Source: an uncultured Clostridia bacterium (GTDB lineage Bacteria; Bacillota; Clostridia; TANB77; CAG-508). Taken from it: DNA of 64,000 bases. Positions 24,013 to 47,100 of the stretch are shown here, in pieces. Below the pieces are notes generated by a model, which saw only the letters and a program-made list of their open reading frames with translations, ran no database searches and had not been told where the DNA came from. The translations under genes were made by a program, and so were the position numbers. The stretch's first letter is position 1; each line of letters opens with the position of its first letter. The stretch is taken from positions 14,041 to 78,040 of the forward strand of contig CALXVB010000002.1 of the NCBI GenBank assembly GCA_944391855.1, in the 5' to 3' direction.

Positions 24013-24019
24013 TTTCTTT

Positions 24020-28705: not shown

Positions 28706-28994
28706 TACCAAGGGTTACAGAGTTTCTAAAAATAAAAAAACAGTAAAAAATTAGTAAACTATTGCCAAATTGTTGTCAAACTAAAATAAAATCTCTGAAA
28801 TCATTGAAAATACTGGAATTTATCTTGGCGACAGAACTGACGACAAATTGAATACGATGTTTAATACTAAAAAGCTAACATATAAAGTGTTAGCTTATTT
28901 TTTAATTTACAATTAATAAATATTTCTATATTAAAAAGGGAAAATAAATAATTATAATAAATATAATAAAAACTTATTTTCCCTTAAACATCTT

Positions 28995-29426
28995 TCACCA
29001 AAGGATTCTGTAATTACAGACAGTTGAAGGATCTAATTCTTCTGCCTGATGCCATCTCCAAAATCCATCATCATCTATATAACCATAAGAATAGTCTATT
29101 GGTGTTGGACATATATAATAGCCTTTAGCAGAAACCCAATCCTTAACGGAAGAAATTAGTGGGAACGGAAGAATAAATTCCGCTATATAATTCCCATTAT
29201 TTATATGCTCATACAAACTATTGAGAATAAATAGTTTTTGAAGATATACTTTATCTTCAAAGGAAAGACTTTCGGGTGAGGCAGAATTAAGATATTCAAA
29301 ATCTTTGAGTTCTTTATCAACCAAAGATAACAATTTTCTTTTCTTTCTATTTTTATATCGATGGCTAATTTCTGAATATCTTCGTGCATCATGAAAGTCT
29401 AGCAAAGTAACATTCCGTTCTAACAT
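28995..29426 (-). CDS. hypothetical protein (first gene inside the island)
   Basis: 143-aa ORF. Confidence 0.45.
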   Translation of the reverse strand: MLERNVTLLDFHDARRYSEISHRYKNRKKRKLLSLVDKELKDFEYLNSASPESLSFEDKVYLQKLFILNSLYEHINNGNYIAEFILPFPLISSVKDWVSAKGYYICPTPIDYSYGYIDDDGFWRWHQAEELDPSTVCNYRILW

Positions 29427-29711
29427 ATTAAATCATCCTTTCTTAAAATTCACTGTACATGGTTACATAATAATTATTACACAAATATATTAGAAAGTCA
29501 AGGAAAATAAAACAATCAGACGAAAATTGTTATATAATTTTTTGAATTCTAATCTAATAGTTCCTATATATTTTTGTAGAGTACAATTAGATTGATTATA
29601 AATGGATAAAATAACAAAAAAGAAAAGAAGATATAAAAAGAAAAAACAATAAAAATATTGAAGCTTTATGTAAAATGTGCTAATATATAATTGTAAACTT
29701 TTTGGATAAGA

Positions 29712-29753
29712 AATAGCAATTAATTAATGAAATTGTATTAATTAATTGCTATT
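29712..29753. promoter_or_regulatory. perfect 17-bp inverted repeat AATAGCAATTAATTAAT-N8-ATTAATTAATTGCTATT between the extended -10 (TGCTAATATATAAT) and cdsB-like start: putative repressor operator
   Basis: Perfect palindrome with no downstream T-run, so operator-like rather than a terminator. Confidence 0.5.
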
Positions 29754-29807
29754 TCAGAAGTTCAAAAAAAAATATACAGCATGGTCATAAAAAAGGAGGA
29801 AAATATT

Positions 29808-31097
29808 ATGACTAATAAACAAAAAGAATTGATGGGTAACTTATTACGGAGTAACTTGTTAGTTTCAACAGGTTGCACAGAACCAATTGCTATAGCCTAT
29901 GCAGCAGCAGTAGCAAGAACTTATTTGAATGAAGAACCTGCAGATATTACATTGCATATTAGTAAAAATATGGCTAAAAATGCAATGGATGCTGGAATTC
30001 CAAATTCAAAATATACAGGTACAGCATTTGTAGCTTCGCTTGGAGCCTTATATGCTAATCCAAAAGATGGTTTTCAATTGCTTGAAAATCTTTCGGATGA
30101 ACAGCATAAAGTGGCAAATCATTTTGCAAAAGAACATGTAAATATCGAAATTGCCGATACAGACAAAGCATTGTATATTGAAGTAGAAATGCAAGGAATT
30201 AAAGTTAAGGCTTCTAGAGATCCCTGTCGATGTTGTAATACTGTTAAGTTAATTGTAACTGATGGACATACTAATGTCAATTTGATTGAAGTAAATGGTG
30301 AAAAAGTATTTGAGTTTAGCATTGACGAATCTACTTCTGAAAGTAAAAATACGGAGAAAATAGATTTTTCTATGAAAGAAGTGTTCGAATATGCAGAAGA
30401 ACTTGAAGATTTACAGATTTTCCAAAAAGCTCTTGACTTAAACAAAAAATTAAGTGAAGTTGGTAAAAGAGATAATTGGGGGTTGAATGTTGGAAAAATA
30501 AAACCTTTCGGTGAAGACACTGCTTTGTCAAGAATTATATCTTCAACAACTTCGGCGATTGATGCAAGAATGGCAGGTGCTCCATATCCCGCTATGGCTT
30601 GTACAGGAAGTGGTAATCAAGGAATTTCCACAACTATACCAGTTTATCAAGCTGGTATCGAGCTTAATGCTAGTATGGATAAAATTTTACGAGCAATAGC
30701 AATAAGCGATTTGACAGCCATCTTTGTAAAGAGAAACTTAAATGTTCTTTCTTACTTATGTGGTGCAGTAATAGCAAGTTGTGGATCTTCTGCAGGAATC
30801 ACTTATTTGCTGGGAGGAGATTATGAAGATGCAGAATATGCAGTAAAAAATGTTTTAGCATCTGTTACTGGAATGTTCTGTGATGGGGCTAAAAGCACGT
30901 GTGCTATGAAGGTCTTGGTTTGTTCCACAATGGCTGTTTATGCAGCTAATATGGCAATGTTAAGTAATAGTAAAATTACACAGAAAATCGGAATCGCTAG
31001 AGAAAGTCTTATAGATACAATAAAAAATGTATCTATACTGGAAAGCGAAACCTCACAAACCATGGATGATACAATAATGAAAATTATTGTAAAGTGA
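29808..31097 (+). CDS. L-cysteine desulfidase family protein (CdsB/YhaM, UPF0597)
   Basis: STGCTEPIAIAYAAA motif; AAGGAGGAAA RBS; holds the only in-frame CGG codon seen (LLRSN, 29851). Confidence 0.7.
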   Translation: MTNKQKELMGNLLRSNLLVSTGCTEPIAIAYAAAVARTYLNEEPADITLHISKNMAKNAMDAGIPNSKYTGTAFVASLGALYANPKDGFQLLENLSDEQHKVANHFAKEHVNIEIADTDKALYIEVEMQGIKVKASRDPCRCCNTVKLIVTDGHTNVNLIEVNGEKVFEFSIDESTSESKNTEKIDFSMKEVFEYAEELEDLQIFQKALDLNKKLSEVGKRDNWGLNVGKIKPFGEDTALSRIISSTTSAIDARMAGAPYPAMACTGSGNQGISTTIPVYQAGIELNASMDKILRAIAISDLTAIFVKRNLNVLSYLCGAVIASCGSSAGITYLLGGDYEDAEYAVKNVLASVTGMFCDGAKSTCAMKVLVCSTMAVYAANMAMLSNSKITQKIGIARESLIDTIKNVSILESETSQTMDDTIMKIIVK

Positions 31098-31117
31098 AAT
31101 GTAAAATTTGAACTTCG

Positions 31118-31150
31118 AATTGGGTGTCCTATTAGGGCACCCAATTCAAG
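31118..31150 (+). terminator. rho-independent terminator after cdsB-like
   Basis: GAATTGGGTGTCC-tatta-GGGCACCCAATTC hairpin. Confidence 0.75.
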
Positions 31151-31212
31151 TGTAAAAGAATAAAAAGTTAAAAGTTAAATAAAAAGCTAAATAAAAAAAG
31201 TTAAAAATAGTG

Positions 31213-31241
31213 TTGACAAAAATAATTAAAAATCATATAAT
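31213..31241 (+). promoter_or_regulatory. perfect sigma-A consensus promoter TTGACA-N17-TATAAT
   Basis: An exact match to both hexamers with a 17-nt spacer. Confidence 0.7.
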
Positions 31242-31273
31242 AAAATAAATCAAGAAAGAAAGGAAAGATATAA

Positions 31274-31318
31274 ATGATATTAATAAATATAATCTCTAAT
31301 TGCTGTTGTATGAATTAA
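31274..31318 (+). CDS. 14-aa leader peptide MILINIISNCCCMN with three consecutive Cys codons (attenuator leader)
   Basis: RBS AAAGGAAAG; TGC TGT TGT at 31301-31309. Overlapping stem 31310-31354, then a terminator. Lies upstream of the cysK-like gene. Confidence 0.5.
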   Translation: MILINIISNCCCMN

Positions 31319-31393
31319 TACTCTGTCTATTGTAGACATGAGTATTAAAATTCATGCCTACAGAGAGATTATATTTTATAAGATAAATTATAA

Positions 31394-31432
31394 AACTATG
31401 TGGGCATTTTTAATACTACACATAGTTTTTTT
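31394..31432 (+). terminator. attenuator terminator: 9-bp stem AACTATGTG/CACATAGTT, 15-nt loop, T7
   Basis: Segment 31340-31358 can alternatively pair with the terminator loop and 5' flank (GGCATTTTTAATACT). Confidence 0.7.
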
Positions 31433-31474
31433 ATTGTTATATATAAAAATAAAAAAAGATTTAGGAGGGTTAAT

Positions 31475-32446
31475 ATGTTTAAAAAGAATGAATTTATAGG
31501 AAATACACCAATGATAAAAATAATTTATAAATATAATGGTAAGATAAAAAAAATATTTGTTAAACTAGAATATTTTAATTTAACTGGAAGTATTAAAGAT
31601 AGAGTGGCTTTTTATATAATTAATAATGCTAAAAAAAGAGGAAAATTAAAAGATGGAATGGCAATAGTCGAAGCAACAAGTGGAAATACAGGTATCGCAC
31701 TATCAGCATTAGGAACTTACTATAAACATCCAGTATATATTTTTATGCCTGATTGGGCAAGTAAAGAAAGAATTAAATTAATGGAAGGATATGGTGCTAA
31801 AGTATTTTTGATTTCAAAAGAAGATGGAGGATTTATAAGGTGTGTAAATGAAGCAAAAAAATTATCTAAAGAACTAGATGGCTATTTGTCTAATCAATTT
31901 GCGAATGAAGATAATTATTTAGCTCATTATGAAACTACCGGAGAAGAAATATTAAATCAAATCCCAGAAAAAATAGGAGGTTTTGTATCTGGTATAGGTA
32001 CAGGAGGAACTTTGATGGGAATAGGAGATAAATTAAAAGAAAAATATAATAATATATATATAACAGCTATTGAACCAGATAAAATGCCTATACTATCTGG
32101 TGGAAAAATATTAGGACAACACAAAATAGAAGGAATTGGTGATGATTTTGTTCCAGAATTAGTAGATAAAAATAAAATTGATAAAATTATACAAATAAAT
32201 GATGATGATGCAATTAACATGTCTAGAAAATTATCAAGACAATTAGGAATAGGAGTTGGAATTTCATCTGGTGCAAATTTGATTGGTAGTATATTGCTTT
32301 CAGATGAAATAGAAGATAATGTAGTTACAGTGTTTGCCGATGATAATAAGAAATATTTATCCACAGACTTGTTTAAAGACATCGATAATAATAAAGAATT
32401 TATTTCCAACAATGTTGAATTATTAAGTTATGAAGAGTTGCATTAA
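31475..32446 (+). CDS. cysteine synthase family PLP enzyme (CysK/CysM-like)
   Basis: SIKDR lysine motif, TSGNTGIA, GTGGT, SSGAN. The ORF-track start at 31400 lies inside the terminator; real start ATG 31475 with AGGAGGG RBS. Confidence 0.85.
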   Translation: MFKKNEFIGNTPMIKIIYKYNGKIKKIFVKLEYFNLTGSIKDRVAFYIINNAKKRGKLKDGMAIVEATSGNTGIALSALGTYYKHPVYIFMPDWASKERIKLMEGYGAKVFLISKEDGGFIRCVNEAKKLSKELDGYLSNQFANEDNYLAHYETTGEEILNQIPEKIGGFVSGIGTGGTLMGIGDKLKEKYNNIYITAIEPDKMPILSGGKILGQHKIEGIGDDFVPELVDKNKIDKIIQINDDDAINMSRKLSRQLGIGVGISSGANLIGSILLSDEIEDNVVTVFADDNKKYLSTDLFKDIDNNKEFISNNVELLSYEELH

Positions 32447-32724
32447 GTAAAATATTTGATAGTTTTGTAATAATAATAAAACTGTAACAATAAAAATATA
32501 ATAATTAAATTAACAATAAAAGAAAATAAGTATAAAATATATAAGTAATTAGTGGAAATCTTGAGAAATAACTATGATTATGATATAATAACAGTATTCA
32601 ATCATATAGTTATTGCCTAAAAAATTTTAGGCGATGAATTAAAATACATCGTTTAAACTTTTAAGGTAATACTATCTGTTTGTAAGCAACTCAAAAAAAG
32701 CAAATTTTAAGGAGGTCATTAACA

Positions 32725-34197
32725 ATGAAAATCACAAACTCTATGAGCGGAAAAAAAGAAGAATTTGTACCTTTAAAAGAGGGCGAAGTAAAAATGTATG
32801 CTTGCGGTATCACTGTATATGATTTAAGCCACATTGGTCATGCTAGGCAAGCAATCGACTATGCTATGATTACGGATTATCTCAGGTATAGGGGATATCA
32901 CGTAACATACGTACGTAATTATACTGATGTTGATGACAAAATCATCATAAAAGCTAATGAGTTAGGGAAAAATGCTTTGGATTTTTCTGGAGAGCAGATT
33001 CTTGAGACTGAGAAGGACATGAAAGCATTACATGTTACAGATGCAGATATAAAGACTAAAGCATCTGAGTATATTCCACAAATTATAAAATTTGTGGAAG
33101 GTCTTATCGAAAAAGGTCATGCATATGCAACAAAGAATGGAGATGTTTATTTTTCAGTAAAGACAGATAGTGAATATGGGAAATTATCTCATAGAAAAGT
33201 AGAGGAACTGCGAAATGGTGTACGTGTCGAACTAGACGAAGAAAAAGAGGATCCAGTTGACTTTGCTTTGTGGAAAGCTGCAAAACCTGGAGAGATTTAT
33301 TGGGAATCTCCTTGGGGAAAAGGAAGACCAGGTTGGCATATTGAATGCTCAGCTATGGCTTTAGATACTCTTGGAGAAACAATTGATATTCATGGTGGAG
33401 GAAGAGATTTAGTATTTCCACATCACGAAAATGAAATTGCACAAAGTGAATCTTTGACAGGCAAACCTTTTGCAAAATACTGGAGTCATTGCGGTCTGAT
33501 AAAGATCAATGGACAAAAAATGGGAAAATCGTTGGGAAATTCCTTAACAATAAGGGATGCTTTAGCAAAGTATAATTATGAAGTGATTAAATGCACTATA
33601 CTTTCTAAACACTACACATCAGATATTGATTTGCATGATAGCGATTTTCAGCTTGCAGAAGGTCATATGTACTATTTTTATAGTACAATCAAAGCAATGG
33701 AAAATTTTATTTCTAGCAATGGGGGAGATGCTACATCTGAAATTCTCGAAGACGAAATTCCAAATACTATCATTTCTAAATTTATTGAAGTGATGGATGA
33801 TGACTTTAACTCAGCAGTAGCAATTGCAAATTTGCACACAATCTTCAAATATGCAAATAACTTAATGAAATCTGCCAAGAAAGCAAACAAACAGATAGTA
33901 GCCAATACTTTGGCAAAGGCTTTGAAAGATTTGAAAAGTGTTTACAAAATTTTAGGCTTTTTTGAGCAAGAACCAGAGAGATTCCTTTTAGAAATGAAGG
34001 AAAAATACCTTAAAGAGCTTAATATCGATGTAGACGAGGTTGAAACCCAGATTTTAAAGAGAGCAGAGGCTAAAAAGAGAAAGGACTTTGAAACAGCTGA
34101 TGCAATTAGAAATGAGCTTGAAGCAAAAGGTATTCTTTTGAAGGATACTAGGGAAGGTACTGTCTGGGATTTGAAAATGCTTTATAACTTTAATTAA
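32725..34197 (+). CDS. cysS: cysteinyl-tRNA synthetase
   Basis: HIGH (SHIGHAR), KMGKS (KMGKSLGN), zinc ligands, full anticodon-binding domain; AAGGAGGT RBS. Confidence 0.95.
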   Translation: MKITNSMSGKKEEFVPLKEGEVKMYACGITVYDLSHIGHARQAIDYAMITDYLRYRGYHVTYVRNYTDVDDKIIIKANELGKNALDFSGEQILETEKDMKALHVTDADIKTKASEYIPQIIKFVEGLIEKGHAYATKNGDVYFSVKTDSEYGKLSHRKVEELRNGVRVELDEEKEDPVDFALWKAAKPGEIYWESPWGKGRPGWHIECSAMALDTLGETIDIHGGGRDLVFPHHENEIAQSESLTGKPFAKYWSHCGLIKINGQKMGKSLGNSLTIRDALAKYNYEVIKCTILSKHYTSDIDLHDSDFQLAEGHMYYFYSTIKAMENFISSNGGDATSEILEDEIPNTIISKFIEVMDDDFNSAVAIANLHTIFKYANNLMKSAKKANKQIVANTLAKALKDLKSVYKILGFFEQEPERFLLEMKEKYLKELNIDVDEVETQILKRAEAKKRKDFETADAIRNELEAKGILLKDTREGTVWDLKMLYNFN

Positions 34198-34215
34198 AAA
34201 GTTGTAAGGTGAAAT

Positions 34216-34260
34216 CTATTGATTAGATTGAGGAAATTTTTCCTCAATCTAATCAATATT
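34216..34260 (+). terminator. long hairpin after cysS (16-bp stem ATTGATTAGATTGAGG/CCTCAATCTAATCAAT)
   Basis: Perfect inverted repeat with a weak T-tract. Confidence 0.5.
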
Positions 34261-34267
34261 ATATAAT

Positions 34268-34342
34268 GGTGTTGTAGCCAAGCGGTAAGGCATGAGTCTG
34301 CAAAACTCTGATTCGTCGGTTCGAATCCGTCCAACACCTCCA
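34268..34342 (+). tRNA. tRNA-Cys (GCA), somewhat divergent
   Basis: Acceptor GGTGTTG/CAACACC, D-arm GCCAAGCGGTAAGGC (same as B. subtilis tRNA-Cys), loop CU-GCA-AA, T-loop TTCGAAT, discriminator U, CCA. There are U-U mismatches in the anticodon and T stems. Confidence 0.8.
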
Positions 34343-34363
34343 AAAAAGTTTAAATAAAAAAAT

Positions 34364-34396
34364 AAAGAATTTGTCAATTCTTTATTTTTTTATTTA
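34364..34396 (+). terminator. rho-independent terminator
   Basis: AAAGAATTGTCAATTCTTT + T-run. Confidence 0.7.
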
Positions 34397-34485
34397 TATA
34401 TTAAATTAATTGATATCAATACTTTTAAAAATAATTATATAACTAAAGATAATAATAACATTAGTAAATAAAATTATGACATAAT

Positions 34486-34514
34486 TTGACAAAAAACAAA
34501 AAAAACAGTATAAT
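34486..34514 (+). promoter_or_regulatory. second perfect TTGACA-N17-TATAAT promoter, driving the small ORF and the radical-SAM operon
   Basis: Exact consensus. Confidence 0.65.
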
Positions 34515-34558
34515 ATCACTGGATTTAGCGAATTTTTATATTAAGATAGGAGTAAAAA

Positions 34559-34648
34559 ATGATAATTAGAATGATTAATAATGTAAGATATTTCAATAAA
34601 AATAAAATTGATAACATTTTCTGTACTATTTTTGTGCCTAAATTCTAA
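34559..34648 (+). CDS. 29-aa small ORF MIIRMINNVRYFNKNKIDNIFCTIFVPKF: candidate precursor peptide or regulatory uORF
   Basis: AGGAG RBS 6 nt upstream; own promoter; followed by hairpin 34656-34690; sits immediately 5' of the rSAM operon. Confidence 0.35.
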   Translation: MIIRMINNVRYFNKNKIDNIFCTIFVPKF

Positions 34649-34655
34649 AAAATAA

Positions 34656-34690
34656 AGAGTCAAGGATTTTCTTTGACTCTTTGTTTTTTT
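34656..34690 (+). terminator. terminator/attenuator between the small ORF and the operon
   Basis: AAGAGTCAA-ggattttct-TTGACTCTT + T8. Confidence 0.7.
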
Positions 34691-34730
34691 TAGAATAAAA
34701 TAAATATTAATTTAAGTTAGGAGTGATTTT

Positions 34731-35768
34731 ATGATAAAGGGAATAAAAACAAAAAATATCAAACCAATAGTTAGGAAAAGAATGGATAAACTTGTACAGA
34801 AGTTAAAAGCAAAACCTGAAGTTGAAGGCATAGTTTATTTAAGTGGACTTGCAAATACGGAATACAAAGATTTTATCGATGAATACTCTGATATAGATAT
34901 TGGAATTTTTCTTAATGTTGATAGAGAACATTTACCTAATTGGTTGCCACCATTCTCATTTTATATTGTTATAACAGATCAAGATGGTTTTGATAAGACA
35001 ATGGAAGTGAATTTTCATCAAAAAATTTATGATGAAGAAAAAAATTCACAATGGCATGATTATAAGAAAGAATTTTATAAATATGCTTGTGAGATTGTTT
35101 TTGATAGAAACGGAAGGATAGAAAAGTTAATTAATGAAAAAACAGTTTTTACAGAAGAATATAGAAAACTATTACTATCTCATTTATTATCAAGGATTTA
35201 TTGGATGGTAGAAATTAATCCATTAAATGCAGTAAAAAGAGGATTAATTTTTAATGGAGAAGATTTATTGAATCAAGGATTAAATTATGTAACTGACCTC
35301 CTTTATGTCTATGATAAAAAATTCCCACCTGCTGCAAAATGGAAAATATCTCTATTAGGCAATTTAGACTTCTGTCCAAATAATATAGAAAAAAGAATTG
35401 AAAATTGCTTTATAGTGAATGAAATTTCAGAAGAAGATGTTTTAAGAAGAAGAAAAGAAATGCTTTCAATAACTAAGGAAATAGAAAATAAAGTATTTGA
35501 AGAAGGTCTTTTTAAGTCTACTGAAGATTACATAGAATATGAATATAAAAATTGGAATGCACAGCAAAAACAGTTAAAAGATATTACACAGTATGACATA
35601 ATTGTTTCAAAATTTAACGATATTTCTACAGAAGAAAGAAAAATACTAAAGGGTATATTATGTGAATATTTTATTACAAATTTAGAAGATTTAACTAAAA
35701 TATCAACTGAAGAATTAAATGAAATACAAAAGAATCTATTACATAAAATAATTAAAAAAATTAATTAA
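34731..35768 (+). CDS. nucleotidyltransferase-fold protein (ANT(6)/AadK-like N-terminus)
   Basis: IVYLSGLANTEYKDFIDEYSDIDIGIF resembles the GSRAN..D.DI motif of ANT(6). Confidence 0.5.
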   Translation: MIKGIKTKNIKPIVRKRMDKLVQKLKAKPEVEGIVYLSGLANTEYKDFIDEYSDIDIGIFLNVDREHLPNWLPPFSFYIVITDQDGFDKTMEVNFHQKIYDEEKNSQWHDYKKEFYKYACEIVFDRNGRIEKLINEKTVFTEEYRKLLLSHLLSRIYWMVEINPLNAVKRGLIFNGEDLLNQGLNYVTDLLYVYDKKFPPAAKWKISLLGNLDFCPNNIEKRIENCFIVNEISEEDVLRRRKEMLSITKEIENKVFEEGLFKSTEDYIEYEYKNWNAQQKQLKDITQYDIIVSKFNDISTEERKILKGILCEYFITNLEDLTKISTEELNEIQKNLLHKIIKKIN

Positions 35769-35809
35769 AATTAATAATTTATTACGTTAAATAAGAGGGG
35801 AAATGAAAA

Positions 35810-37153
35810 ATGGAAATAAAAAATGAAACAAATAATGAATTTTATTTAGGAAGAAAATCTATTTTTATACCAATTGTTTTTTTGATTATTAGCATAATAG
35901 TTTTAGTTATATTGAAGAGAGCTTCTCTAAAAACTTTTTGGATAATCGGATTTTTTGCTATATTTTTAACATATTTGTTATCAAAAAATAAAAAAGAATT
36001 TGGAAATAAATGTGTTGAAAATTTAAAAAGTAATACTTTATTGACTTATGTTCTTATCTTTATTTTGGCAGGAATATTATCCAGTATATTAAAAGTAACA
36101 GGAGTTTCAAATGCCCTTTTAACAATTTTTATAAATACTGGTGTTGGTCCGGAATTTATACCTGCTATAATGTTTATTATATGTTGCTTAATATCTACTT
36201 TTATTGGTACAAATACTGGTACATATTCTATAGTAGTACCTATTTTTCTACCAATTGCAGTGTCATTAAATTGTAACCCTGCTTTAGCACTAGGAGCTAT
36301 CATGTGTGGAGGAGGTTTTGGTGATAATTTATCACCAATATCAGATACTACAATAATTTCCGTGAATACCATGAAAGTTAATTTGCTTGACACATTAAAG
36401 GTAAGAGTAAAAACATCTTTAGGTTGTGCATTATTATCAACAGTGATCTTTATAATTCTAGGTCATTTACTAATTACAAATCCAACAAATAATATTGAAA
36501 CTTATGCAAATGATTCGTTGATGCCATTATTAATGCTAATAGTCTTTGTGTTAATGATGTTTTTATTGCTAAAAAAGAATGACTTAATTTCAGTTTTATT
36601 AATATGTGATGTGTTTGCAATTATTTTAGCTATGGTATTTGGATTTGTATCTTTTGGAGATATGTTTAGTCAAAATAGTCCTATAATTTCTGGCATAGAA
36701 GGTGTTTTTGGAGTTATTGTATTTTGGATTTTCTTGTTTATATTAACTGAATTTATACCTACAGATATGTTGGAGGAATATATTAATAAAAAAGTAAAAA
36801 ATAGTAAAAGCCCTTCTCGAACTAATGGACTAGCTGCTTTAACTATAATTTCATCAATATTGTTGATATCTAATAATACTGCTGCAATGTCTTTACTTAG
36901 CAAGTTCATAGACAAATGCTTTAAAAATAAGACACAAATAGAAAAAGCAAATATATTTGATGGACTTTCATGTGCTACATCTACCTTAATACCATATAAT
37001 ACAGCTGTTATGTTAATGATTAGCCTTGCATATGGAACAGGTTGTTTACCTGAAAGTTTTTCACCTATTTCAATAGTTATGTTTTCAATAAATAGTATGT
37101 TATTGCTAATTACATATACATTTAAATCTATATATGATCCTAAAAAAGATTAA
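35810..37153 (+). CDS. NhaC-family membrane transporter (Na+/H+ antiporter family)
   Basis: ~11 TM segments; motif GGGFGDNLSPISDTTI. Confidence 0.7.
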   Translation: MEIKNETNNEFYLGRKSIFIPIVFLIISIIVLVILKRASLKTFWIIGFFAIFLTYLLSKNKKEFGNKCVENLKSNTLLTYVLIFILAGILSSILKVTGVSNALLTIFINTGVGPEFIPAIMFIICCLISTFIGTNTGTYSIVVPIFLPIAVSLNCNPALALGAIMCGGGFGDNLSPISDTTIISVNTMKVNLLDTLKVRVKTSLGCALLSTVIFIILGHLLITNPTNNIETYANDSLMPLLMLIVFVLMMFLLLKKNDLISVLLICDVFAIILAMVFGFVSFGDMFSQNSPIISGIEGVFGVIVFWIFLFILTEFIPTDMLEEYINKKVKNSKSPSRTNGLAALTIISSILLISNNTAAMSLLSKFIDKCFKNKTQIEKANIFDGLSCATSTLIPYNTAVMLMISLAYGTGCLPESFSPISIVMFSINSMLLLITYTFKSIYDPKKD

Positions 37154-37194
37154 AGGAGGCATAATAAAATTGAAGTATTATAGGAGAAAAGATT

Positions 37195-37914
37195 ATGTTT
37201 TTGAAAAATAAAAAAGATTTGGATTTAGTTATTTTTGATTTTGATGGAACTTTAGTAGATTCCAATGGAGTTAATAATGAAATAGATATTGAACTAGTTC
37301 GCTCTTTCAAAGAAAGGAAAAATCCAGACGAAATTATAAAAGAAAGAGACTATATTTTAAAAACTAAAACAAATGGAGATATATATGTAAATTATTGCCA
37401 ATATTTAAAAGAAAAATATAATTTGGATTTGCTAGCAGAGGAAATACTTGAAATTCGTAGAAAAATATCAAAAAAATTTTTAAGGAATGTAAAATATAAA
37501 CCTGGTGCTGATATAATAATAAAATTAATAAAAGAACAAAAAATAAAATTAGCATTAGCAACAGTTTCAAGTTTGCAATCATTAAATATTTATTTTTATG
37601 AAAATGAAAACATAATAAAAAAATGTGATTTACAAAATTATTTTGATTTAATCGTTACAAAAGATGATGTTATTTATAAAAAACCAAATCCAGAAGTCTA
37701 TAATAAAATAATAAATAAATTTAATATTACAAATTTATCAAAATGTATAGTAATTGAAGATTCATTAAATGGGGTTATTGCAGCGAAAAGAGCAAATCTT
37801 AATGTTATAGCAATTTATGATAAATATTCTGATAAAGATAGAGAAAAAATAAATGAAATTGCAGATTACAATGTGAAAAACTTTGAGGAATTAATAGCCT
37901 TATTTAAGAACTAA
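37195..37914 (+). CDS. HAD-superfamily hydrolase/phosphatase
   Basis: Motif I LVIFDFDGTLVDS; motif IV ..EDSLNG. Confidence 0.8.
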   Translation: MFLKNKKDLDLVIFDFDGTLVDSNGVNNEIDIELVRSFKERKNPDEIIKERDYILKTKTNGDIYVNYCQYLKEKYNLDLLAEEILEIRRKISKKFLRNVKYKPGADIIIKLIKEQKIKLALATVSSLQSLNIYFYENENIIKKCDLQNYFDLIVTKDDVIYKKPNPEVYNKIINKFNITNLSKCIVIEDSLNGVIAAKRANLNVIAIYDKYSDKDREKINEIADYNVKNFEELIALFKN

Positions 37915-37933
37915 TAAAGGGAGGAGATTTAAA

Positions 37934-38935
37934 ATGATATCACCATGTGTATTTAAACAAAGAAAAAGTGATAATTATGTAACATTTATTGAAATAACAA
38001 ATTGTTGCAATATGAAATGTAAACATTGTATGAATGGATCAAACGATAAAGAGATTAACAAAGGATTTTCAATCGAAAATATAAAGAAACTATTAGAAGA
38101 ACTTTACGAAAATAAGACAGAAAAAATTTATATATCTGGAGGAGAACCTCTATTATATCCATATATAGATGATGTGATTTTATATGCTAATTCTTTGGGA
38201 ATGAAAGTAACACTTGCAACTAATGGATTAGAGATTCCTAAACATTTAGATGCAATAAAAAAAGGAGTTCAATTAGTTTCAGTTAGTCTTGATGGAATTG
38301 GGAAAACACATGATAAATTTAGAGGTGTTCAAGGATCATACGAAAACTGTATAGAAGTTTTAAAGTTATTAAAAGAAAACAATGTAAAAACTAAAATAAG
38401 TGCAATGATATGGAAAGAGAATATAGAAGAATTGGAGGATATGATTATTTTAGCTAAATCTTGTGGTGTTTCAAAAATTAATTTTGCATTCATGTTACCA
38501 GAAGGAAGAGCAAAGTTAGATGAAACAATTAAAGTGCCTGATAATAGATATAGAGAAATATTCGATAAAATGGAAAAATTAATAAAGAAATATGCAAAAG
38601 AGGACTTTGAAATAAGATTTAGAAGAACTGATGTGCTAGATAAAAATAGTTTAGACTGTCCAGGGGGAAAAAATTTAATGCATATAGATGTAAATGGTAA
38701 GGTATCTCCTTGTTCTTGGATAGCTAAATTAGATAAAGAAAATGAATTTTCATCATATTGGCCTAAAAGTAGTATTAGCGAATGTATAAAAAAATTTGAT
38801 GCTTTTGATAATTGTAAAAAAACAAGAAAAGATAAATTTGGATACTGTGGTTGTATTGCACTTGCTAATATGTATAATGGTAATTTTTTAGCAGAAGATC
38901 CATTAAATAAAGTTTTAAAAGAAAGTAGGAGATAA
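37934..38935 (+). CDS. radical SAM enzyme with C-terminal SPASM/twitch domain (rSAM-1)
   Basis: CNMKCKHC (CX3CX2C), GGEP, C-terminal Cys cluster. Confidence 0.85.
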   Translation: MISPCVFKQRKSDNYVTFIEITNCCNMKCKHCMNGSNDKEINKGFSIENIKKLLEELYENKTEKIYISGGEPLLYPYIDDVILYANSLGMKVTLATNGLEIPKHLDAIKKGVQLVSVSLDGIGKTHDKFRGVQGSYENCIEVLKLLKENNVKTKISAMIWKENIEELEDMIILAKSCGVSKINFAFMLPEGRAKLDETIKVPDNRYREIFDKMEKLIKKYAKEDFEIRFRRTDVLDKNSLDCPGGKNLMHIDVNGKVSPCSWIAKLDKENEFSSYWPKSSISECIKKFDAFDNCKKTRKDKFGYCGCIALANMYNGNFLAEDPLNKVLKESRR

Positions 38936-38938
38936 ATT

Positions 38939-39676
38939 ATGGACAAATATGCAATAATAACTGGTGTATCTTCTGGAATTGGGGAATGCATAGCAAAAAA
39001 ATTTATAGAAGATAACATACATGTTTTTGGAATAGATGAAAACCAACCAAAAAATAAAAAAATCGATTTTTTTGAATGTGATATTAGGGATGAAGAAAAA
39101 ATAATAGATATTTTTAACAAAATTAGTAAAAAAACAAAATATATCAATTGTTTAATAAATTCAGCAGGTATTTTTTGTTATAGTGAAAGAAATTTAATAG
39201 AAAATCTTTCAAAAACAGAATGGCAAAGCGTTATTGATGTAAATTTAACAGGTACATTTTTAATAACAAAGCATTCAATACCATTATTAAAAAAATCATC
39301 AAATGGCAACATTATAAATTTGAGCTCTGAACAAGTTGTTTTACCTCAAATAAAGAGTGCACCATATGCAGTTACTAAAGCTGCCATAGAAATGTTCTCT
39401 AAAATATTAGCACTTGAACTAATTGATTCAAAAGTCAGAGTCAATACTATAGCTCTAGCATCTGTAAAAACTAATTTTTTAAAAAGATACAAAAAAGATG
39501 ATGAGATTATAAAGAAAATGATGGAAGCTACAGATAAAAATATGCCTTTTGGTATTATTGATCCATATGATGTATATAAATTAGTTAGATATTTAATAGA
39601 AGAAGATACTAAAATTACAGGACAAACTATTCTTATTGATAGCGGAGTTATATTATCTGCTAATAAAAAGAAATAG
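38939..39676 (+). CDS. SDR-family short-chain dehydrogenase/reductase
   Basis: TGVSSGIG glycine motif; YxxxK (YAVTK). Confidence 0.85.
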   Translation: MDKYAIITGVSSGIGECIAKKFIEDNIHVFGIDENQPKNKKIDFFECDIRDEEKIIDIFNKISKKTKYINCLINSAGIFCYSERNLIENLSKTEWQSVIDVNLTGTFLITKHSIPLLKKSSNGNIINLSSEQVVLPQIKSAPYAVTKAAIEMFSKILALELIDSKVRVNTIALASVKTNFLKRYKKDDEIIKKMMEATDKNMPFGIIDPYDVYKLVRYLIEEDTKITGQTILIDSGVILSANKKK

Positions 39677-39739
39677 TTTGTAGTTGTAAGATAAAAATAA
39701 TAGAATGTTTTTGAAAAAATGAGAAAGGAATGAATTGTA

Positions 39740-40927
39740 ATGAAAAAAGTGGAATATGATTTAGATGGGAAGAATAAACTGTATTTTTTTCCAGAGTATA
39801 ATAGATTTACTTTTAATGATCCTAACCCTGAAATTGTAGCTGATTATTATAGTGATTCATTAGTAAAATTAAGATTAGAAATCTCTCATTTATGTAACGG
39901 AAGATGTAAGTATTGTTTAGTTTATGGAAATAATGTGGAAAAAGCAGAAATTTTGAATGTTAAAGAATTCTGGAAATACCTTGTAAGTCAAGAGTGGTTT
40001 AAAAACATAAAAAAAATTTTCATTATTGGAGGAGAGCCTTTACTTCATTTTGAAGAAATATCATATATTATAGATAATTTTAATGGAAAAATTAGTTTTT
40101 CCACAAATGGTACATTAATAACTAAAGATATGGCTAAGAAATTTTCAAAATCGAATGTAAAGGTGTATATATCACTTGATGGACCAGAATTTGAAGATAA
40201 TATTAATAGAGTATATATAAACCAAGAATTTATGTATCCAGATATTATAAAAGGAATAAATTTGCTTAAAGAATATAATGTGAAATTTGGTATTTTTATG
40301 GTTGCTACTCCAGAAACAGTAAAGAAAGCAACAAATATGATTTTAAAATTAGATGAAAAATATTCACCAATAAGAATTGGATATAATCTTCCACATTGGA
40401 CTCCAGATTATGAAAATAACGGTCTAGCAGAAGAATTTAGAGATGTGTTATTAGAACTTTATAAAAATAGAAAAAAATTAAAAGCAGAGATTCCTCAATT
40501 AAAATGGAGATTAAATCCTTTGTGTGAAGGAAAAGTTAAGAAATTTTCATGTGGATTACATACTACTCAGACAACAATTTTACCAGATAAATCAATTATA
40601 AGATGCTCAAAAATTGATAATGAAAACGATAATTTAAAATTACGTGTTACGAATGAATTACTTGATAAAAATTCACCAATAGAATTGGCAAAAGACAAAA
40701 AATCTAATTGTTCAAAATGTATTGCATTATCATGTTGTGGAGGAGGATGTCCTTTTGATGGAATGAAAAGATTCAATTGCCTAACAGATAGAAGAGAATG
40801 TGTAATTACACCTCCACTTGTCAATATGGCTATAAATAATGTTGTTGAAAAATTTAAGAGTCAGGAAATTAAAGTTCCAAATGGATTAATAAAACCTGAT
40901 ATAATCAATAAATTAATTTGGAGTTGA
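39740..40927 (+). CDS. radical SAM/SPASM enzyme with ~45-aa N-terminal extension (rSAM-2)
   Basis: CNGRCKYC; C-terminal CSKCIALSCCGGGCPFDG. Confidence 0.85.
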   Translation: MKKVEYDLDGKNKLYFFPEYNRFTFNDPNPEIVADYYSDSLVKLRLEISHLCNGRCKYCLVYGNNVEKAEILNVKEFWKYLVSQEWFKNIKKIFIIGGEPLLHFEEISYIIDNFNGKISFSTNGTLITKDMAKKFSKSNVKVYISLDGPEFEDNINRVYINQEFMYPDIIKGINLLKEYNVKFGIFMVATPETVKKATNMILKLDEKYSPIRIGYNLPHWTPDYENNGLAEEFRDVLLELYKNRKKLKAEIPQLKWRLNPLCEGKVKKFSCGLHTTQTTILPDKSIIRCSKIDNENDNLKLRVTNELLDKNSPIELAKDKKSNCSKCIALSCCGGGCPFDGMKRFNCLTDRRECVITPPLVNMAINNVVEKFKSQEIKVPNGLIKPDIINKLIWS

Positions 40928-41613
40928 GATTTTATAAAATGAAGGAAAAGATAAATGAAATAAAAAAAATTATGTTAGGACATATTCCAATTAATATATC
41001 TATAGTAGTTATAACACCACTGTCTTCAACATTTTATAAATTATGTAAAAGGTTAGATATAAAAGAAAAATATGATAATGGCTTTTTTGAAAATTGCATT
41101 TTTAGACTTAATTATGAAGAAGATAAAAGGGGAATATTAATTTTATCACCACAAGGAATTGCTTCCAAGGATATAATCGAATTGTTTTCCAATATTAATA
41201 TTTTGTTTTTTGGTTTAGCAGGAAGTCTAAATAAAAAATATGAGATTGGAAGCTTTGTAGAAGTTATATTAGCTGAAGATGAGTATGGAGAAATTTCAAA
41301 ACTTAATACAATAGGAAAAAAAGAAATGGTAAAATGTGGCTATTCTCCATGTTTACTTGGTGAAATTGAAAAGAAATATTGTGAATTTGCTAGGAATGAA
41401 AATTGTGATGTTGTAGATATGGAAACTACTTATTGTGCAAAAACGGCAATTGAAAGAAATAATAGATTTGTATCATTATTATTAATATCAGACATTCCAA
41501 AAGTAATTAACTTTTGGGAGTTATCAGATATAGAACGTAATAAACTTAAAGAAGGTAGAAAAGATGCAATAAATGAAATAATAAATTATATAAATATTTT
41601 AATAAAGGAGTAG
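40918..41613 (+). CDS. PNP/MTAN-superfamily nucleosidase-like protein (likely start ATG 40939)
   Basis: ILSPQGIASKD..FFGLAGSL and VVDMETTYCA resemble the MTA/SAH nucleosidase DMESAA motif. Confidence 0.5.
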   Translation: MELRFYKMKEKINEIKKIMLGHIPINISIVVITPLSSTFYKLCKRLDIKEKYDNGFFENCIFRLNYEEDKRGILILSPQGIASKDIIELFSNINILFFGLAGSLNKKYEIGSFVEVILAEDEYGEISKLNTIGKKEMVKCGYSPCLLGEIEKKYCEFARNENCDVVDMETTYCAKTAIERNNRFVSLLLISDIPKVINFWELSDIERNKLKEGRKDAINEIINYINILIKE

Positions 41614-41617
41614 AAAA

Positions 41618-42520
41618 ATGAGTGATGAAATAGTTATAAAATATATAGAAACAACAAGTAAATGTAATTATGCTTGTCCAATATGTGTTAAAAGAACAAG
41701 AAATTGTAATATGAATATTGAAGAGTTTTATAAAATAGTCGATAGAAATATTGAGTTATTTCACAAAAAGCCTATTTGGCTTGATCTTAATGGCGAACCA
41801 CTAGTAGATCCTTACTTTTTTGATAGGGTAAAATATATGCAGAGTAAAGGACTTAAGACTAGAATATCCACTAATGGTGCATTATTAAATAAAGAAAATA
41901 TAGAAAAAATTGTAGACTCAGGTATGAATTATATTGTTGTATCAGTTGGAACTTTAAATCCATCAGTATATAAACAAATAAGAGGAATTGATAATTTATC
42001 TAAAGTTTTAAATAATTTGGATAACTTGAAAAAGTATGTTGATAAGACACATGCTAACACTGAACTTCAAGCTGTTATGATAGATACAGGAACTAATTTA
42101 GATAGAGAAGAATTTATTAAATATTTTCATGATCGTGGGATTAATGTCGCATTCCATAATTTTACTAATAGAGCCCATAGTATAGAAATGGATTTAAATC
42201 CTAAAAGTAGAGATTTTAGTACATATGAAAGAGGAGAGTGCAAGGGATTAAAACGTAATATAATAATTCTTAGTAATTGTGAAGTTATAACTTGCTGTTG
42301 TGATTTTTTAGCCAGAAATTCTTTGGGGAATTTAAGGGATTATGACTATTCTGTAAAAAAATTAGTTGAAAATGGGAATTTAGATCAATTAATTTCTGAT
42401 TTACGAAACCATATATATAAAGGATCTTGCAAGGATTGTTCTGATTGGATATATTATCAAGAAAATGCAACAGAAGAATATGTTACAGTGTATCCAGTAA
42501 ATAAAACAACATCTAATTAA
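41618..42520 (+). CDS. radical SAM enzyme with C-terminal Cys-rich (SPASM/twitch-like) domain (rSAM-3)
   Basis: CNYACPIC; C-terminal CEVITCCCDF..CKDCSDW. Confidence 0.8.
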   Translation: MSDEIVIKYIETTSKCNYACPICVKRTRNCNMNIEEFYKIVDRNIELFHKKPIWLDLNGEPLVDPYFFDRVKYMQSKGLKTRISTNGALLNKENIEKIVDSGMNYIVVSVGTLNPSVYKQIRGIDNLSKVLNNLDNLKKYVDKTHANTELQAVMIDTGTNLDREEFIKYFHDRGINVAFHNFTNRAHSIEMDLNPKSRDFSTYERGECKGLKRNIIILSNCEVITCCCDFLARNSLGNLRDYDYSVKKLVENGNLDQLISDLRNHIYKGSCKDCSDWIYYQENATEEYVTVYPVNKTTSN

Positions 42521-42549
42521 GTTATAGAATATATACTATAATCATAAAA

Positions 42550-42598
42550 ATAGAGGAAAATTAAATTTTATTTTGAAAATCCTCTATTTTTTTATAAT
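42550..42598 (+). terminator. operon terminator
   Basis: AATAGAGGAAAAT..ATTTTGAAAATCCTCTATT + T7. Confidence 0.75.
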
Positions 42599-42709
42599 AT
42601 AAATATATTTTTGTACATATTATATAGATTTTCTATTACTTTATTAAAAAACTCATTAAATTCTAGATAATAATAAAAATAATGATATAAAACATAAAAT
42701 AAATATTTA

Positions 42710-42930
42710 GGATCTGTCAAAGATACAAGAGTTTTTAGTTATGCCACAAAAATATTAAGAAATGGGGTAGAGATAAAAGATGTTGCTGAATATTAGGACA
42801 TAATAATATAGAAACAACAGAAAATTACTATATATCTAGTTCTAAAAAATTTAGAAAAAATGCAAATGATATATTTGAAAAAATAACTTTTTCTAACACT
42901 ATACAAGAAATAGCTAATTATATATATTAA
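42710..42930 (+). pseudogene. 3' remnant (~70 codons) of a tyrosine recombinase/integrase with an internal frameshift near 42787
   Basis: Translates as ..GSVKDTRVFSYATKILRNGVEIKDVAEY/LGHNNIETTENYYISS.. (R..H..GH..Y catalytic block); no N-terminal portion. Confidence 0.7.
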
Positions 42931-43190
42931 TTTGACAAACTGAAACTTACGTGGTATATTATCAATGAAATATACTGAGTAGGCTTTTTTAAATTATATT
43001 TCAGATCATAGCATTAATGGTAAATAAAAATATGTTGGCGACATTGTTGCCAATTTGTTGCCAGAAATATAACAAAAATAGTAAAAATAATATAATAAAT
43101 ACTATATATATTCTTTACATTAATTTTTCTAAACACAGAAATATCAATAGTATTGATAATATTATAAATACTGATAATACTAAATTTTCC

Positions 43191-43244
43191 ACTACTTGTG
43201 GTTCGGGCAAAAAGTATAAAAATTGTTGTGGAAGAAATGGATAA
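43191..43244 (+). pseudogene. diverged duplicate of the secA 3' end (SEC-C zinc finger ..[15 protein letters not shown])
   Basis: ~75% nt identity to secA 28650-28705; the upstream part of ORF 43017..43244 is low-complexity AT-rich filler. Confidence 0.55.
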
Positions 43245-43246
43245 AT

Positions 43247-43498
43247 ATGATAAAAATAGTATTTAATAAAGAAAAAAACAAATCGGTAGCATATGATAAT
43301 AATATTCAAATTGGTGAGTGTGACTTTGAAGAGATAGGTGGCAGTACATGGAATATTGTCCATACAGAAGTAGATAATTCTTATCAAGGTCAGGGAATTG
43401 CTAGAAAATTAGTTGAAATTATTATTGAAAATGCCAAAATAAATAAAAAAACTTTAACTGCTGATTGTTCTTATGCAAAAAAGATTATAGATAAGTAA
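43247..43498 (+). CDS. small GNAT-family N-acetyltransferase
   Basis: HTEVDNSYQGQGIARKLVE acetyl-CoA binding motif. Confidence 0.7.
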   Translation: MIKIVFNKEKNKSVAYDNNIQIGECDFEEIGGSTWNIVHTEVDNSYQGQGIARKLVEIIIENAKINKKTLTADCSYAKKIIDK

Positions 43499-43579
43499 TA
43501 AATTGGGGTGGTGAAAATCACTCCTTAATCTTTGACAAAATAATCTATATATGCTATATTAACATTGTTAAAATAAAAA

Positions 43580-44708
43580 ATGGAGAGTGATTTAATGATA
43601 GATTTTGACTCTACAACTACTGAACTTTCTAATCTTAGTTCTAAATTAACCGAAATTGGTGATTCACTTTGACATTTCTAGTTTAGAAAAAGAATTAAAA
43701 GAATTAGAAAAAGAGACTACTAGCCAAGAATTTTGGGAAAACCAACAAAATACTTCAAAAGTATTAAAAAGAATTACAGAAATAAAAAATAAGATCGAAG
43801 AATATAAGGTGACTAATAATAACTTAGATAATCTCATAGATTTAGTAGAACTATTAAAAATAGAAAAAGATGAGCAATTAGAAGCCGAGTTAGAAAAAAA
43901 CATGCTGGCTCTAAAAAAAGACATAGATAAACTTGAAATATCTACACTTCTTTCTGGAAAGTATGATATTAATAATGCAATTATAACTCTTCATCCCGGG
44001 GCAGGTGGAACTGAAGCACAGGATTGGGTAGAAATGCTATACAGAATGTATACAAGATGGGCAAATGCAAATGGATACAAGGTAGAAGAGTTAGATTATC
44101 TCCCTGGAGATGAGGCAGGAATAAAAAGTGTAACATTTCTAGTATCTGGAGATTATGCTTATGGATATTTAAAAGGAGAACAAGGTGTACACAGGCTTGT
44201 TAGAATTTCTCCTTTTGATTCAGGAGGAAGAAGACATACTTCATTTGCTTCTGTCGAAGTTCTTCCAGAAATTTCAGAAGATATTGAAGTAGATATAAAT
44301 CCAGATGATTTAAAAGTGGACACATATAGAGCATCTGGTGCAGGTGGCCAACACATAAATAAAACTTCTTCTGCAGTTAGAATTACACATATTCCTACTA
44401 ACATAGTGGTAGCATGCCAAACTGAAAGGTCTCAAATACAAAATAGGGAAACAGCCATGAAAATGCTTAAATCTAAACTATTACATTTAAAAGAACAAGA
44501 ACATAAAGAAACCATTGATGAATTAAAAGGTATACAAATGGATATTGCCTGGGGAAGCCAAATACGCTCATATGTATTTTGTCCATATACAATGGTAAAA
44601 GACCACAGAACAAATTACGAAGTAGGTAATGTAGATAGTGTAATGAACGGAGATTTAAATGGATTTATTGATAGTTATTTAAAATATATTAAGAAAGGAA
44701 AACCATAA
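43580..44708 (+). CDS. prfB: peptide chain release factor 2 with the canonical programmed +1 frameshift (CUU UGA C at 43667-43673)
   Basis: Frame 0 gives MESDLMIDFDSTTTELSNLSSKLTEIGDSL*. The +1 frame continues DISSLEKE.. through GGQ (SGAGGQHINK) and SPF. SD-like GGUGAU precedes the site. Confidence 0.95.
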
Positions 44709-47081: not shown

Positions 47082-47100
47082 GGACGTTCTTTAAAGTTCA
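47072..47100. repeat. solo copy (1 mismatch) of the 29-nt palindromic unit
   Basis: TGAACTATAGGGACGTTCTTTAAAGTTCA. Confidence 0.75.

Follow-up and report, generated by a model that had tools for sequence, protein, structure and literature searches.

A 64,000-nt stretch of DNA from an uncultured Clostridia bacterium (contig CALXVB010000002.1 of GenBank assembly GCA_944391855.1, positions 14,041 to 78,040; the window in what follows) carries a 14,539-bp insert, window positions 28666-43204, in the 3' end of secA. We read this insert, with a probability of about 0.85, as the footprint left when an integrative element recombined site-specifically with the SEC-C codons of the gene. The window is low in G+C (GC, ~28%) and comes from a gut bacterium; its PrfB is 82-84% identical to the best matches from GTDB species representatives, one of them on a closed 1.57-Mb chromosome. 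An original prediction made from the letters of the window had placed the end of secA at 28705, the start of prfB at 43580 (43595 is the other candidate start), and genes for cysteine metabolism and radical S-adenosylmethionine (rSAM) enzymes between them, all of which are present. Its central proposal, an element that entered the 3' end of secA and brought a replacement end with it, is borne out by an empty-site contig, by a sister species and by relatives in which the tyrosine integrase (Int) and its Xis partner are intact. Comparison loci and contigs are cited below by our own L numbers.

Both borders of the insert fall within a duplicated gene end. The 50-nt direct repeat at 28656-28705 and 43195-43244 is identical at 41 of 50 positions (82%), and the longest exact match between its two copies is the 10-nt core CTTGTGGTTC. 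The downstream copy had been predicted at 43191-43244 with ~75% identity; the copy is real, and the bounds and identity are those given here. Because attL, attR and the empty site have no identical stretch in common other than CTTGTGGTTC, the crossover most probably fell inside it. In the occupied allele secA reads through the junction to a tail ending in GKNA*, with the full SEC-C motif kept, in place of the native GRNG* (CCGRNG* in the empty-site contig L010); the insertion thus changes the last 3-4 residues of SecA. The displaced copy still scores as Pfam SEC-C (E = 1.4e-5) and sits behind junk translation. A 75-aa open reading frame (ORF) that runs through it (43017-43244) was considered as a real gene and rejected, as stop codons interrupt its counterpart in L015, L018 and L035.

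The empty site was found through an exact-product look-up of the small acetyltransferase gene at 43247-43498, which returned island-type contigs and the metagenome contig L010. Positions 1-306 of L010 are 100% identical to window 28360-28665 and positions 297-1722 are 100% identical to window 43195-44620, with 0 mismatches over 1,722 nt in total. The switch lies inside CTTGTGGTTC, and secA (GRNG*) runs directly into the acetyltransferase gene, which is followed by prfB. This identity on both sides indicates that the downstream SEC-C copy in the window is the native secA end and that the GKNA* copy now on secA arrived with the insert. The same arrangement, the left side of attL joined to the right side of attR, occurs in a sister species (L125-L127), where the order secA(GRNG)-acetyltransferase-prfB stands on 8 contigs of up to 110 kb. 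Related genomes therefore do have an empty secA-prfB junction, a point on which the original prediction had hung its proposal. The sister lineage is 87-91% identical to the window in nucleotide sequence and its SecA protein is 97% identical; assignment to the same species, which the SecA value suggested, was rejected because the DNA is only 87-91% identical. We note that in empty sites the acetyltransferase gene starts 2 nt past the secA stop (window 43242-43249), which suggests translational coupling; in the window the gene trails the displaced SEC-C remnant, so that the coupling to secA would be lost.

The right end of the element recurs in other genomes. Metagenome contigs were scanned with the right-border 26-mer TTGGCGACATTGTTGCCAATTTGTTG, which gave 11 contigs, and with these and four other GTDB species the right arm is conserved in 18 instances. 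Their alignment holds from GGTAAAT...TTGGCGACATTGTTGCCAATTTGTTGCC... to TTTCCACTAC(A/T), followed by TGYGG and then by a SEC-C remnant in which the choice of synonymous codons (for Ser, TCG/TCA or AGT/AGC) depends on the host. On the upstream side of the arm, the 18 instances show no relation to one another unless int is present. The alignment puts the right end of the element at 43194-43196 and strand exchange in or just past C(A/T)TGTGG. Many copies have TTCCAC-N5-GTGGAA at the junction; this perfect inverted repeat of 6 nt would make a plausible pair of core-type sites.

In the position where the window has a remnant, L096 and L013 carry an intact int, and L100 carries the 3' part of the gene from codon ~177. 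L096 shows intact xis, a 423-aa int, the same arm as the window and then the SEC-C remnant, and the int part of L100 is followed by that same arm and a SEC-C remnant as well. Window 42737-43245 is 85% identical in nucleotide sequence to the int 3' end and arm of L096 over 514 nt. In the GTDB locus L013 an 80-aa HTH_17 Xis-like protein and a 424-aa integrase are encoded upstream of prfB, with int ~315 nt upstream of a truncated SEC-C remnant, the remnant ~840 nt upstream of prfB, and a sigma70_r4 protein encoded further upstream of xis and int. The L013 integrase contains Arm-DNA-bind_4, Phage_int_SAM_3 and Phage_integrase domains (PF14657, PF14659, PF00589). Among solved structures the best match to these integrases is Tn1549 Int, at a weak and partial level (E ~1e-8), and identity to annotated phage integrases reaches 34% at most, in C. 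difficile phiCD24-1 and others. A 27-mer from the right arm had 0 matches in IMG/VR. The window itself retains the last ~64 codons of int, frameshifted and beside attR. The integrase fragment had been predicted at 42710-42930, and it is both real and frameshifted; the homology is confined to 42737-42930, and 42680-42745 belongs to a phosphodiesterase gene fragment. The 1-nt deletion near 42789 is absent from the L002 and L007 alleles.

Repeats mark both arms of the element. The 9-mer TTGGCGACA occurs exactly twice in the 64 kb, at 28825 and 43035 (chance expectation 0.07; 0 of 100 shuffles reach two copies), in the same orientation, with the left copy starting 160 nt past the end of the attL core and the right copy 160 nt before the attR core. 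When TTG(T/C)CAA-type units are counted along with these copies, there are about four repeat units on the left and three on the right, and the repeats lie 100-170 nt from the core. The related sequence blocks that had been noticed at the two borders are thus real, at 28762-28780, 28825-28850 and 43035-43065; the idea that they are rearranged is the less likely one. They are probably arm-type Int-binding sites in both arms and not debris of rearrangement, a view we favor because the intact related integrases carry an arm-binding domain and because other Int lineages share the repeat layout. GTCCAC repeats flank the SEC-C piece on both sides in L013, L022, L098, L101, L112 and L130, and GTACGCA repeats do so in the phage L132. 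TTGGCGACA and TTGTTGCCA are our candidate arm-site motifs.

Transcription signals accompany the arms. Two terminator-like hairpins were found against 0.2 expected, and L018 and L130 have similar hairpins past their arm repeats. Motifs similar to the outward promoter of the window, TTGAC(A/T)-17 nt-TA-rich, are visible by eye in L096, L100, L015, L035 and L013; the check that they lie directly past the int stop covered the window, L096/L100 and L013. It is a reasonable inference that the element would end secA transcription and re-initiate transcription into the downstream genes; prfB has a promoter-like site of its own at 43532-43560. In a circular form, the outward promoter would be expected to read across attP.

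These features suggest the following course of integration. The recombinase would be an arm-binding tyrosine integrase with Arm-DNA-bind_4, SAM-like and catalytic domains, acting with an HTH_17 Xis, and strand exchange would take place within CWTGTGG / CTTGTGGTTC, over the Pro-Cys-Gly codons. The left end of the element would contribute 13 replacement codons and a stop, followed by arm-type Int sites and a terminator; since it supplies the replacement codons, secA would stay intact and exchange the tail GRNG for GKNA. The native tail would have been pushed 14.5 kb downstream, beside a right end ordered as int, outward promoter, arm sites and core.

The present copy has lost its means of movement, and relatives document how. 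Four contigs of a conspecific lineage (L115-L118) are 97% identical to window 29510-42680 and continue from this block into a phosphodiesterase gene and then into an int fragment that starts at codon ~238; the int stretch read in L115 (codons ~238-275) is 90% identical in nucleotide sequence to L096 int. In the window, an internal piece of the phosphodiesterase gene joins int at codon ~360 through an 8-nt microhomology, AGTTATGC. Alignment of the two forms shows a stepwise decay in which the window form derives from an L115-like form by two deletions. Island-bearing strains are represented by ERR4096533 and MAG GCA_944392625.1, an empty-site strain by SRR34436978 and an L115-type strain by ERZ24773479. 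Among the island ORFs, comparison with Pfam, NCBIfam and PHROGs revealed no xis, relaxase, type IV secretion system or phage gene. Megablast of the whole island against known phages and plasmids returned nothing relevant. The island has no DNA match in 50,697 phage records, its ORFs lacking annotation have no PHROG match, and it does not qualify as a prophage. Nor is it an integrative and conjugative element (ICE), as no conjugation module is present in the window island or in the fetched parts of L013 and L096. The term cis-mobilizable element (CIME) denotes a segment whose flanking attL and attR are related to the att sites of autonomous elements but which lacks working recombination or transfer genes, and this is what we find here, with both arms and both cores intact. 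The copy in the window cannot move on its own; it is a dead, CIME-like element. With both att sites and arms intact, excision by a related Int/Xis acting in trans would be possible in principle. The predicted circular junction would join window 43150-43204 to 28666-28720 (..TTTCCACTACTTGTGGTTCAGGTAAAAAATATAAG..).

The coordinates of all features are collected in Table 1.

Table 1. Features of the secA-prfB region in window coordinates.
Feature	Position	Strand	Remarks
secA (914 aa)	25961-28705	+	Pfam SecA_DEAD, P-loop_SecA, SecA_SW, SEC-C; last 13 codons + stop (28666-28705) island-supplied
attL core CTTGTGGTTC	28656-28665	+	direct repeat; sole stretch identical in attL, attR and empty site
Element-borne surrogate secA 3' end	28666-28705	+	9 mismatches to native copy, all past core
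Left-arm repeat cluster: TTGCCAAATTGTTGTCAAA (28762-80), TTGGCGACAGAACTGACGACAAATTG (28825-50)	28762-28850	+	candidate arm-type Int sites
Terminator-like hairpin (28872-28896) and T-run	28872-28906	+	past surrogate secA tail and arm repeats
143-aa ORF	28995-29426	-	outside conserved block; present only in L104 (same lineage)
Conserved cargo block, 13.2 kb	29510-42680	+	Pfam, NCBIfam; 97% identical in L115-L118, 80% in L119/L120
SDH_alpha / Cys-desulfidase-like	29781-31097	+	
cysK-like (PALP)	31475-32446	+	
cysS	32725-34197	+	
tRNA-Cys (GCA)	34268-34342	+	only tRNA in window
hyp345 (345-aa protein)	34731-35768	+	
NhaC-like transporter	35810-37153	+	
HAD hydrolase	37195-37914	+	
rSAM	37934-38935	+	
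SDR	38939-39676	+	
rSAM	39740-40927	+	
PNP_UDP-like	40939-41613	+	
rSAM	41618-42520	+	
Phosphodiesterase-family (PF01663) internal gene fragment	42680-42745	+	64/67 nt identical to L115 14148-14214
Tyrosine integrase C-terminal remnant (codons ~359-424, incl. LGH..ETTENYY)	42737-42930	+	tblastn to L013 Int; 1-nt deletion near 42789
Sigma-70-like outward promoter, TTGACA-17-TG-TATATT	42932-42960	+	directly past int stop; 11/12 match
Right arm, three tandem repeats TTGGCGACA / TTGTTGCCAA / TTTGTTGCCAGA (43035-43065), end ..TTTCCACTA	43019-43194	+	conserved in 18 instances
attR core CTTGTGGTTC	43195-43204	+	direct repeat; empty-site comparison
Displaced native secA 3' end	43205-43244	+	100% identical to secA end of empty-site contig L010; fused to arm sequence
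GNAT (Acetyltransf_CG) gene, 83 aa	43247-43498	+	flank, outside island; 2 nt past secA stop in empty sites
prfB	43595-44708 (start 43580/43595)	+	flank; +1 frameshift CTT TGA C at 43667-73

The secA site has been used well beyond the window. Close relatives differ in how far prfB lies from the secA stop, with values of ~100 nt (L017), 1.4-9.5 kb and >10 kb, while in distant Clostridia (L072-L086) secA and prfB are adjacent. Truncated SEC-C remnants lie upstream of prfB in seven GTDB loci (L011, L013, L015, L018, L022, L025 and L035). Several loci hold more than one event: L092 has two right arms 3.4 kb apart, L096 has a second element with its own sigma, xis and int genes past the SEC-C remnant, L098 has a ~260-nt arm-only relic between two remnants, and L035 has an int N-terminal remnant past the SEC-C remnant. 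These tandem layouts point to repeated integration at a reconstituted site. In other strains of the sister species the gap holds small islands, either flavodoxin and epimerase genes or GNAT/DUF402 and His_Phos_1 genes with int fragments. The loci compared thus mark the secA-prfB gap as an insertion hot spot across this family of uncultured gut Clostridia.

The protein records the same traffic. The body of SecA is near constant across 120 homologues of 89% identity or more, and the last residues vary, among proteins that are 95-100% identical and even among those at 98-100%; the tails seen are GKNA, GRNQ, GRNG, GK, GKNT, GRNA, GKNQ, GRNT, GRNK and GKNS. This variation fits, as expected, with elements that would repeatedly replace the tail. 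As a separate observation, secA on the closed 1.57-Mb chromosome OZ007016.1 (L012, 9655-10001) ends in GKNQ* and is followed by the motif TAATATCAATACTTTCAGAGATT, which marks the left ends of many elements, with prfB within ~300 nt and no remnant. Either an element was almost wholly deleted there, or TAATATCAATACTTTCAGAGATT may be the native downstream source of surrogate ends.

Phages appear to use the site as well. The integrases in IMG/VR nearest to those of L096 and L013 are 38-39% identical, and a truncated SEC-C piece is present in each of the three top-ranking contigs (L132-L134). In L132 the piece lies ~600 nt from int with its own repeats on both sides, a layout that we read as an attP with a surrogate secA tail, and the contig encodes tail proteins, a replisome organizer and a repressor. 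Judged from these arrangements, at least three integrase lineages use the secA 3'-end attB. A broader picture, which as a whole we hold to be rather doubtful, is that the SEC-C 3' end serves as a general attB for at least three Int lineages (two kinds resembling integrative and mobilizable elements, and temperate phages), that their traffic makes relic arrays and SecA tail swaps, and that here a dead att-bounded element carries the only cysS and tRNA-Cys of the species and could be excised by a related Int/Xis.

The closest parallel among known systems is the ICESt1/ICESt3 family of Streptococcus thermophilus, in which ICEs and CIMEs reportedly accrete at the 3' end of fda. As in that family, the window island is att-bounded, has lost its mobility genes and has the 3' end of a housekeeping gene repaired by the element, and tandem elements and relics share one site (L092, L096, L098, L035). 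The target here differs, being the SEC-C codons of secA and not fda, as do the hosts, which are uncultured low-GC gut Clostridia; the fetched family members have no conjugation module, and the cargo includes an aminoacyl-tRNA synthetase and a tRNA. Lambda-type islands and prophages at the 3' ends of tRNA, tmRNA or protein genes share with the island the identical core, the imperfect gene-end duplicates, the element-borne replacement end, int beside one att site (a remnant in the window), the N-terminal arm-binding domain (in the intact related integrases), the repeated motifs in both arms and the coexistence of empty and occupied alleles. In contrast to these, attB here lies in the coding sequence of a zinc-finger motif, and the conservation of its nucleotides suffices for several Int lineages to use it. 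The integrases resemble those of Tn916 and Tn1549 in domain architecture (PF14657, PF14659, PF00589), in the HTH_17 Xis and in the sigma70_r4 protein encoded upstream (L013), Tn916 and Tn1549 themselves having a sigma-like regulatory module of the ORF7/8 type; however, integration here is strictly site-specific and not into AT-rich bent DNA, and Tn916-type conjugation genes are lacking. The temperate phages L132-L134 are like L096 and L013 in having an Int (38-39% identical) beside a truncated SEC-C piece with lineage-specific flanking repeats, but they are true phages of higher GC with int convergent with the SEC-C piece, whereas the element in the window lacks phage genes and differs in its arm repeats.

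The mechanism is thus known and indeed textbook, and the target site in secA appears to be new. The literature searched in full text does not describe the secA 3' end as an attachment site, which is not proof of novelty. We regard the result as useful rather than surprising. It adds the protein-coding zinc-finger motif of an essential universal gene to the attachment sites of integrative elements and phages, and it makes the truncated SEC-C remnant upstream of prfB a ready marker for such elements in small-genome uncultured gut Clostridia. It also documents the stepwise decay of an element into an att-bounded shell that holds housekeeping genes (cysS, tRNA-Cys). For the reading of islands in metagenome-assembled genomes (MAGs), it means that the borders of an island may be of integrative origin even where its cargo is native and essential.

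Several points weigh against the reading of the insert as the footprint of an integrative element. No circular or excised form and no recombination has been seen. The left arm has no counterpart in the fetched loci except in L104, which is of the same lineage, so that the role of its repeats as arm sites rests on similarity to the right arm. The L115 contig was read without its right end, so that the L115-type form may or may not sit at secA. The cargo is native in composition and its cysS diverges as housekeeping genes do, so that the interior may never have been brought in at all. Finally, the island holds the only cysS and tRNA-Cys seen for the species, which is awkward with recent mobility and with an empty-site strain. 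The original prediction had taken a sole cysS as a sign of ancient fixation that would refute insertion; it would not, because empty-site alleles exist.

How the cargo came to lie between the att sites is a separate question. The explanation that fares best, to which we give a little less than an even chance, is that the block with cysS, tRNA-Cys, the rSAM cluster and the phosphodiesterase gene is chromosomal DNA captured by, or translocated into, an element resident at secA. Possible routes would be aberrant excision, illegitimate recombination or recombination between element copies, any of which would leave an att-bounded unit that now holds essential genes. The composition check suggested for the island favors this: the cargo is not evidently foreign, with a GC of 26.7% against 27-29% in the flanks, a GC at third codon positions of 0.163 against 0.156, and a codon-frequency correlation of 0.94. 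The 8-nt microhomology at the deletion junction shows that illegitimate recombination acts here. The block also occurs with neighbors that are not element genes, since in L119/L120 (80% nucleotide identity) RNase-J-like and GH15-like genes lie to its left and the phosphodiesterase gene to its right, and in L113 cysS stands alone in a core context, between an asnS-like gene and ksgA-nusA. Moreover, the empty-site strain must keep cysS elsewhere. Against capture, the event itself is undocumented, and the block might just as well be old cargo that has diverged along with its closely related hosts. All four L115-L118 contigs break ~135-150 nt upstream of the block, so that its left neighbor there is not readable, and for the short left flank that they do have, no homologous sequence was found in the window, in L119/L120 or in any of the other loci.

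We consider it unlikely that a horizontally acquired island brought all 14.5 kb with it as foreign cargo in a single step. Such a delivery would agree with an island that is att-bounded and polymorphic within the species, and with the recombinases found beside the block in relatives. In L121/L122 the cysS-rSAM block is followed by two large serine recombinases, in L123/L124 a split cysS precedes the cluster and an intact cysS follows it, with tyrosine integrases thereafter, and L115 has its int fragment. However, the island has a GC of 26.5% against 27-29% in its flanks and is close to them in the two codon measures given above, and cysS homologues form a continuous series of identities (98, 94, 90, 88, 85, 82, 77% and so on), like those of SecA and PrfB. 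The linkage of the block to the phosphodiesterase gene in a species at 80% nucleotide identity also speaks against a single delivery, as does the lack of a second cysS in the window, where tblastx for another cysS or an asnS-ksgA locus gave noise only.

It is scarcely credible that the tail of an unrelated small SEC-C gene, or a local duplication, accounts for the second SEC-C copy, with the intervening genes in ancestral order: the window has no intact integrase and SEC-C motifs stand at the C-terminus of many small proteins, but this account is refuted by the empty sites of L010 and the sister species, as the copy is 100% identical to an empty-site secA end whose flank continues identical, the arm before it is conserved in 18 unrelated contexts, and distant Clostridia, like L017, have secA next to prfB. 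A misassembly or chimeric contig that joined two loci through a short repeat has an equally negligible probability; the window is metagenome-derived and many related contigs break near the arms (L004, L008, L009), but the left junction of the occupied allele recurs in L104 (an NCBI MAG contig) and the right junction in L001, L002, L005, L006, L102 and L103 (different samples and assemblers), and this recurrence in independent assemblies indicates that the occupied structure is not an artifact. Likewise, the repeat copies share an exact match of only 10 nt, so that a k-mer assembler could not have produced L010 by a jump between them.

The cargo itself is a linked set. An eight-gene cluster at 34731-42520 always stands beside cysS across several species (L119-L124), and three radical-SAM/SPASM genes in it are interleaved with the SDR gene and the PNP_UDP-like gene. 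None of its eight proteins scores above an NCBIfam curated cut-off, so no pathway is assigned; hyp345 has no match in Pfam, NCBIfam or PHROGs. The 143-aa ORF to the left of the block has no Pfam or PHROG match and may be the last remaining gene of the element. All 13 contigs with the exact cysS product, and all with a 98% variant, show the gene in the context of the block. In L112 (cysS 94%), a secA tail is followed by a GTCCAC-type arm and an int N-terminal remnant and then, 2.9 kb downstream of the tail, by cysS.

Two further observations concern the interior of the island. The region upstream of the cysK-like gene (31207-31475) contains a TTGACA-17-TATAAT promoter at 31213, a long inverted repeat (31269-31297 / 31364-31392) and a terminator-like hairpin at about 31393-31436, and L113 has it, at 77% conservation, ahead of cysS. 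No Rfam family matches it, T-box included, and a search of 28600-34800 for riboswitches and T-boxes upstream of the cys genes (Rfam, gathering threshold and E <= 1) found only the tRNA; the region may be an undescribed Cys-responsive leader. At the other end of cysS, L107-L110, contigs of the same lineage, diverge from the window right after the CCA end of tRNA-Cys (34342-34350), into two different sequences, and L001 joins from other sequence just before a hairpin at 34351. The 3' end of tRNA-Cys thus looks like a second strain-variable insertion site, inside the island.

Outside the island, blastn with L003 and L004 gave side matches to a dispersed sequence of ~30-48 nt at 17495-17525, 17588-17618, 23905-23933, 23967-24014 and about 47070-47115. 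Its copies are intergenic, in both orientations and 90-97% identical, and it looks like a repetitive extragenic palindromic (REP-like) repeat. A XerC/D-like tyrosine recombinase motif, RALQELLGHESIATTEIYTHV, at about 53941 on the + strand recurs in the prfB neighborhoods of many relatives, which argues for a housekeeping recombinase and not a part of the island. Window 10973-11288 matches, at 78-84% amino acid identity (tblastx), a ResIII/DEAD fragment that lies beside phage-type integrases in L123, and it may be the relic of another mobile element.

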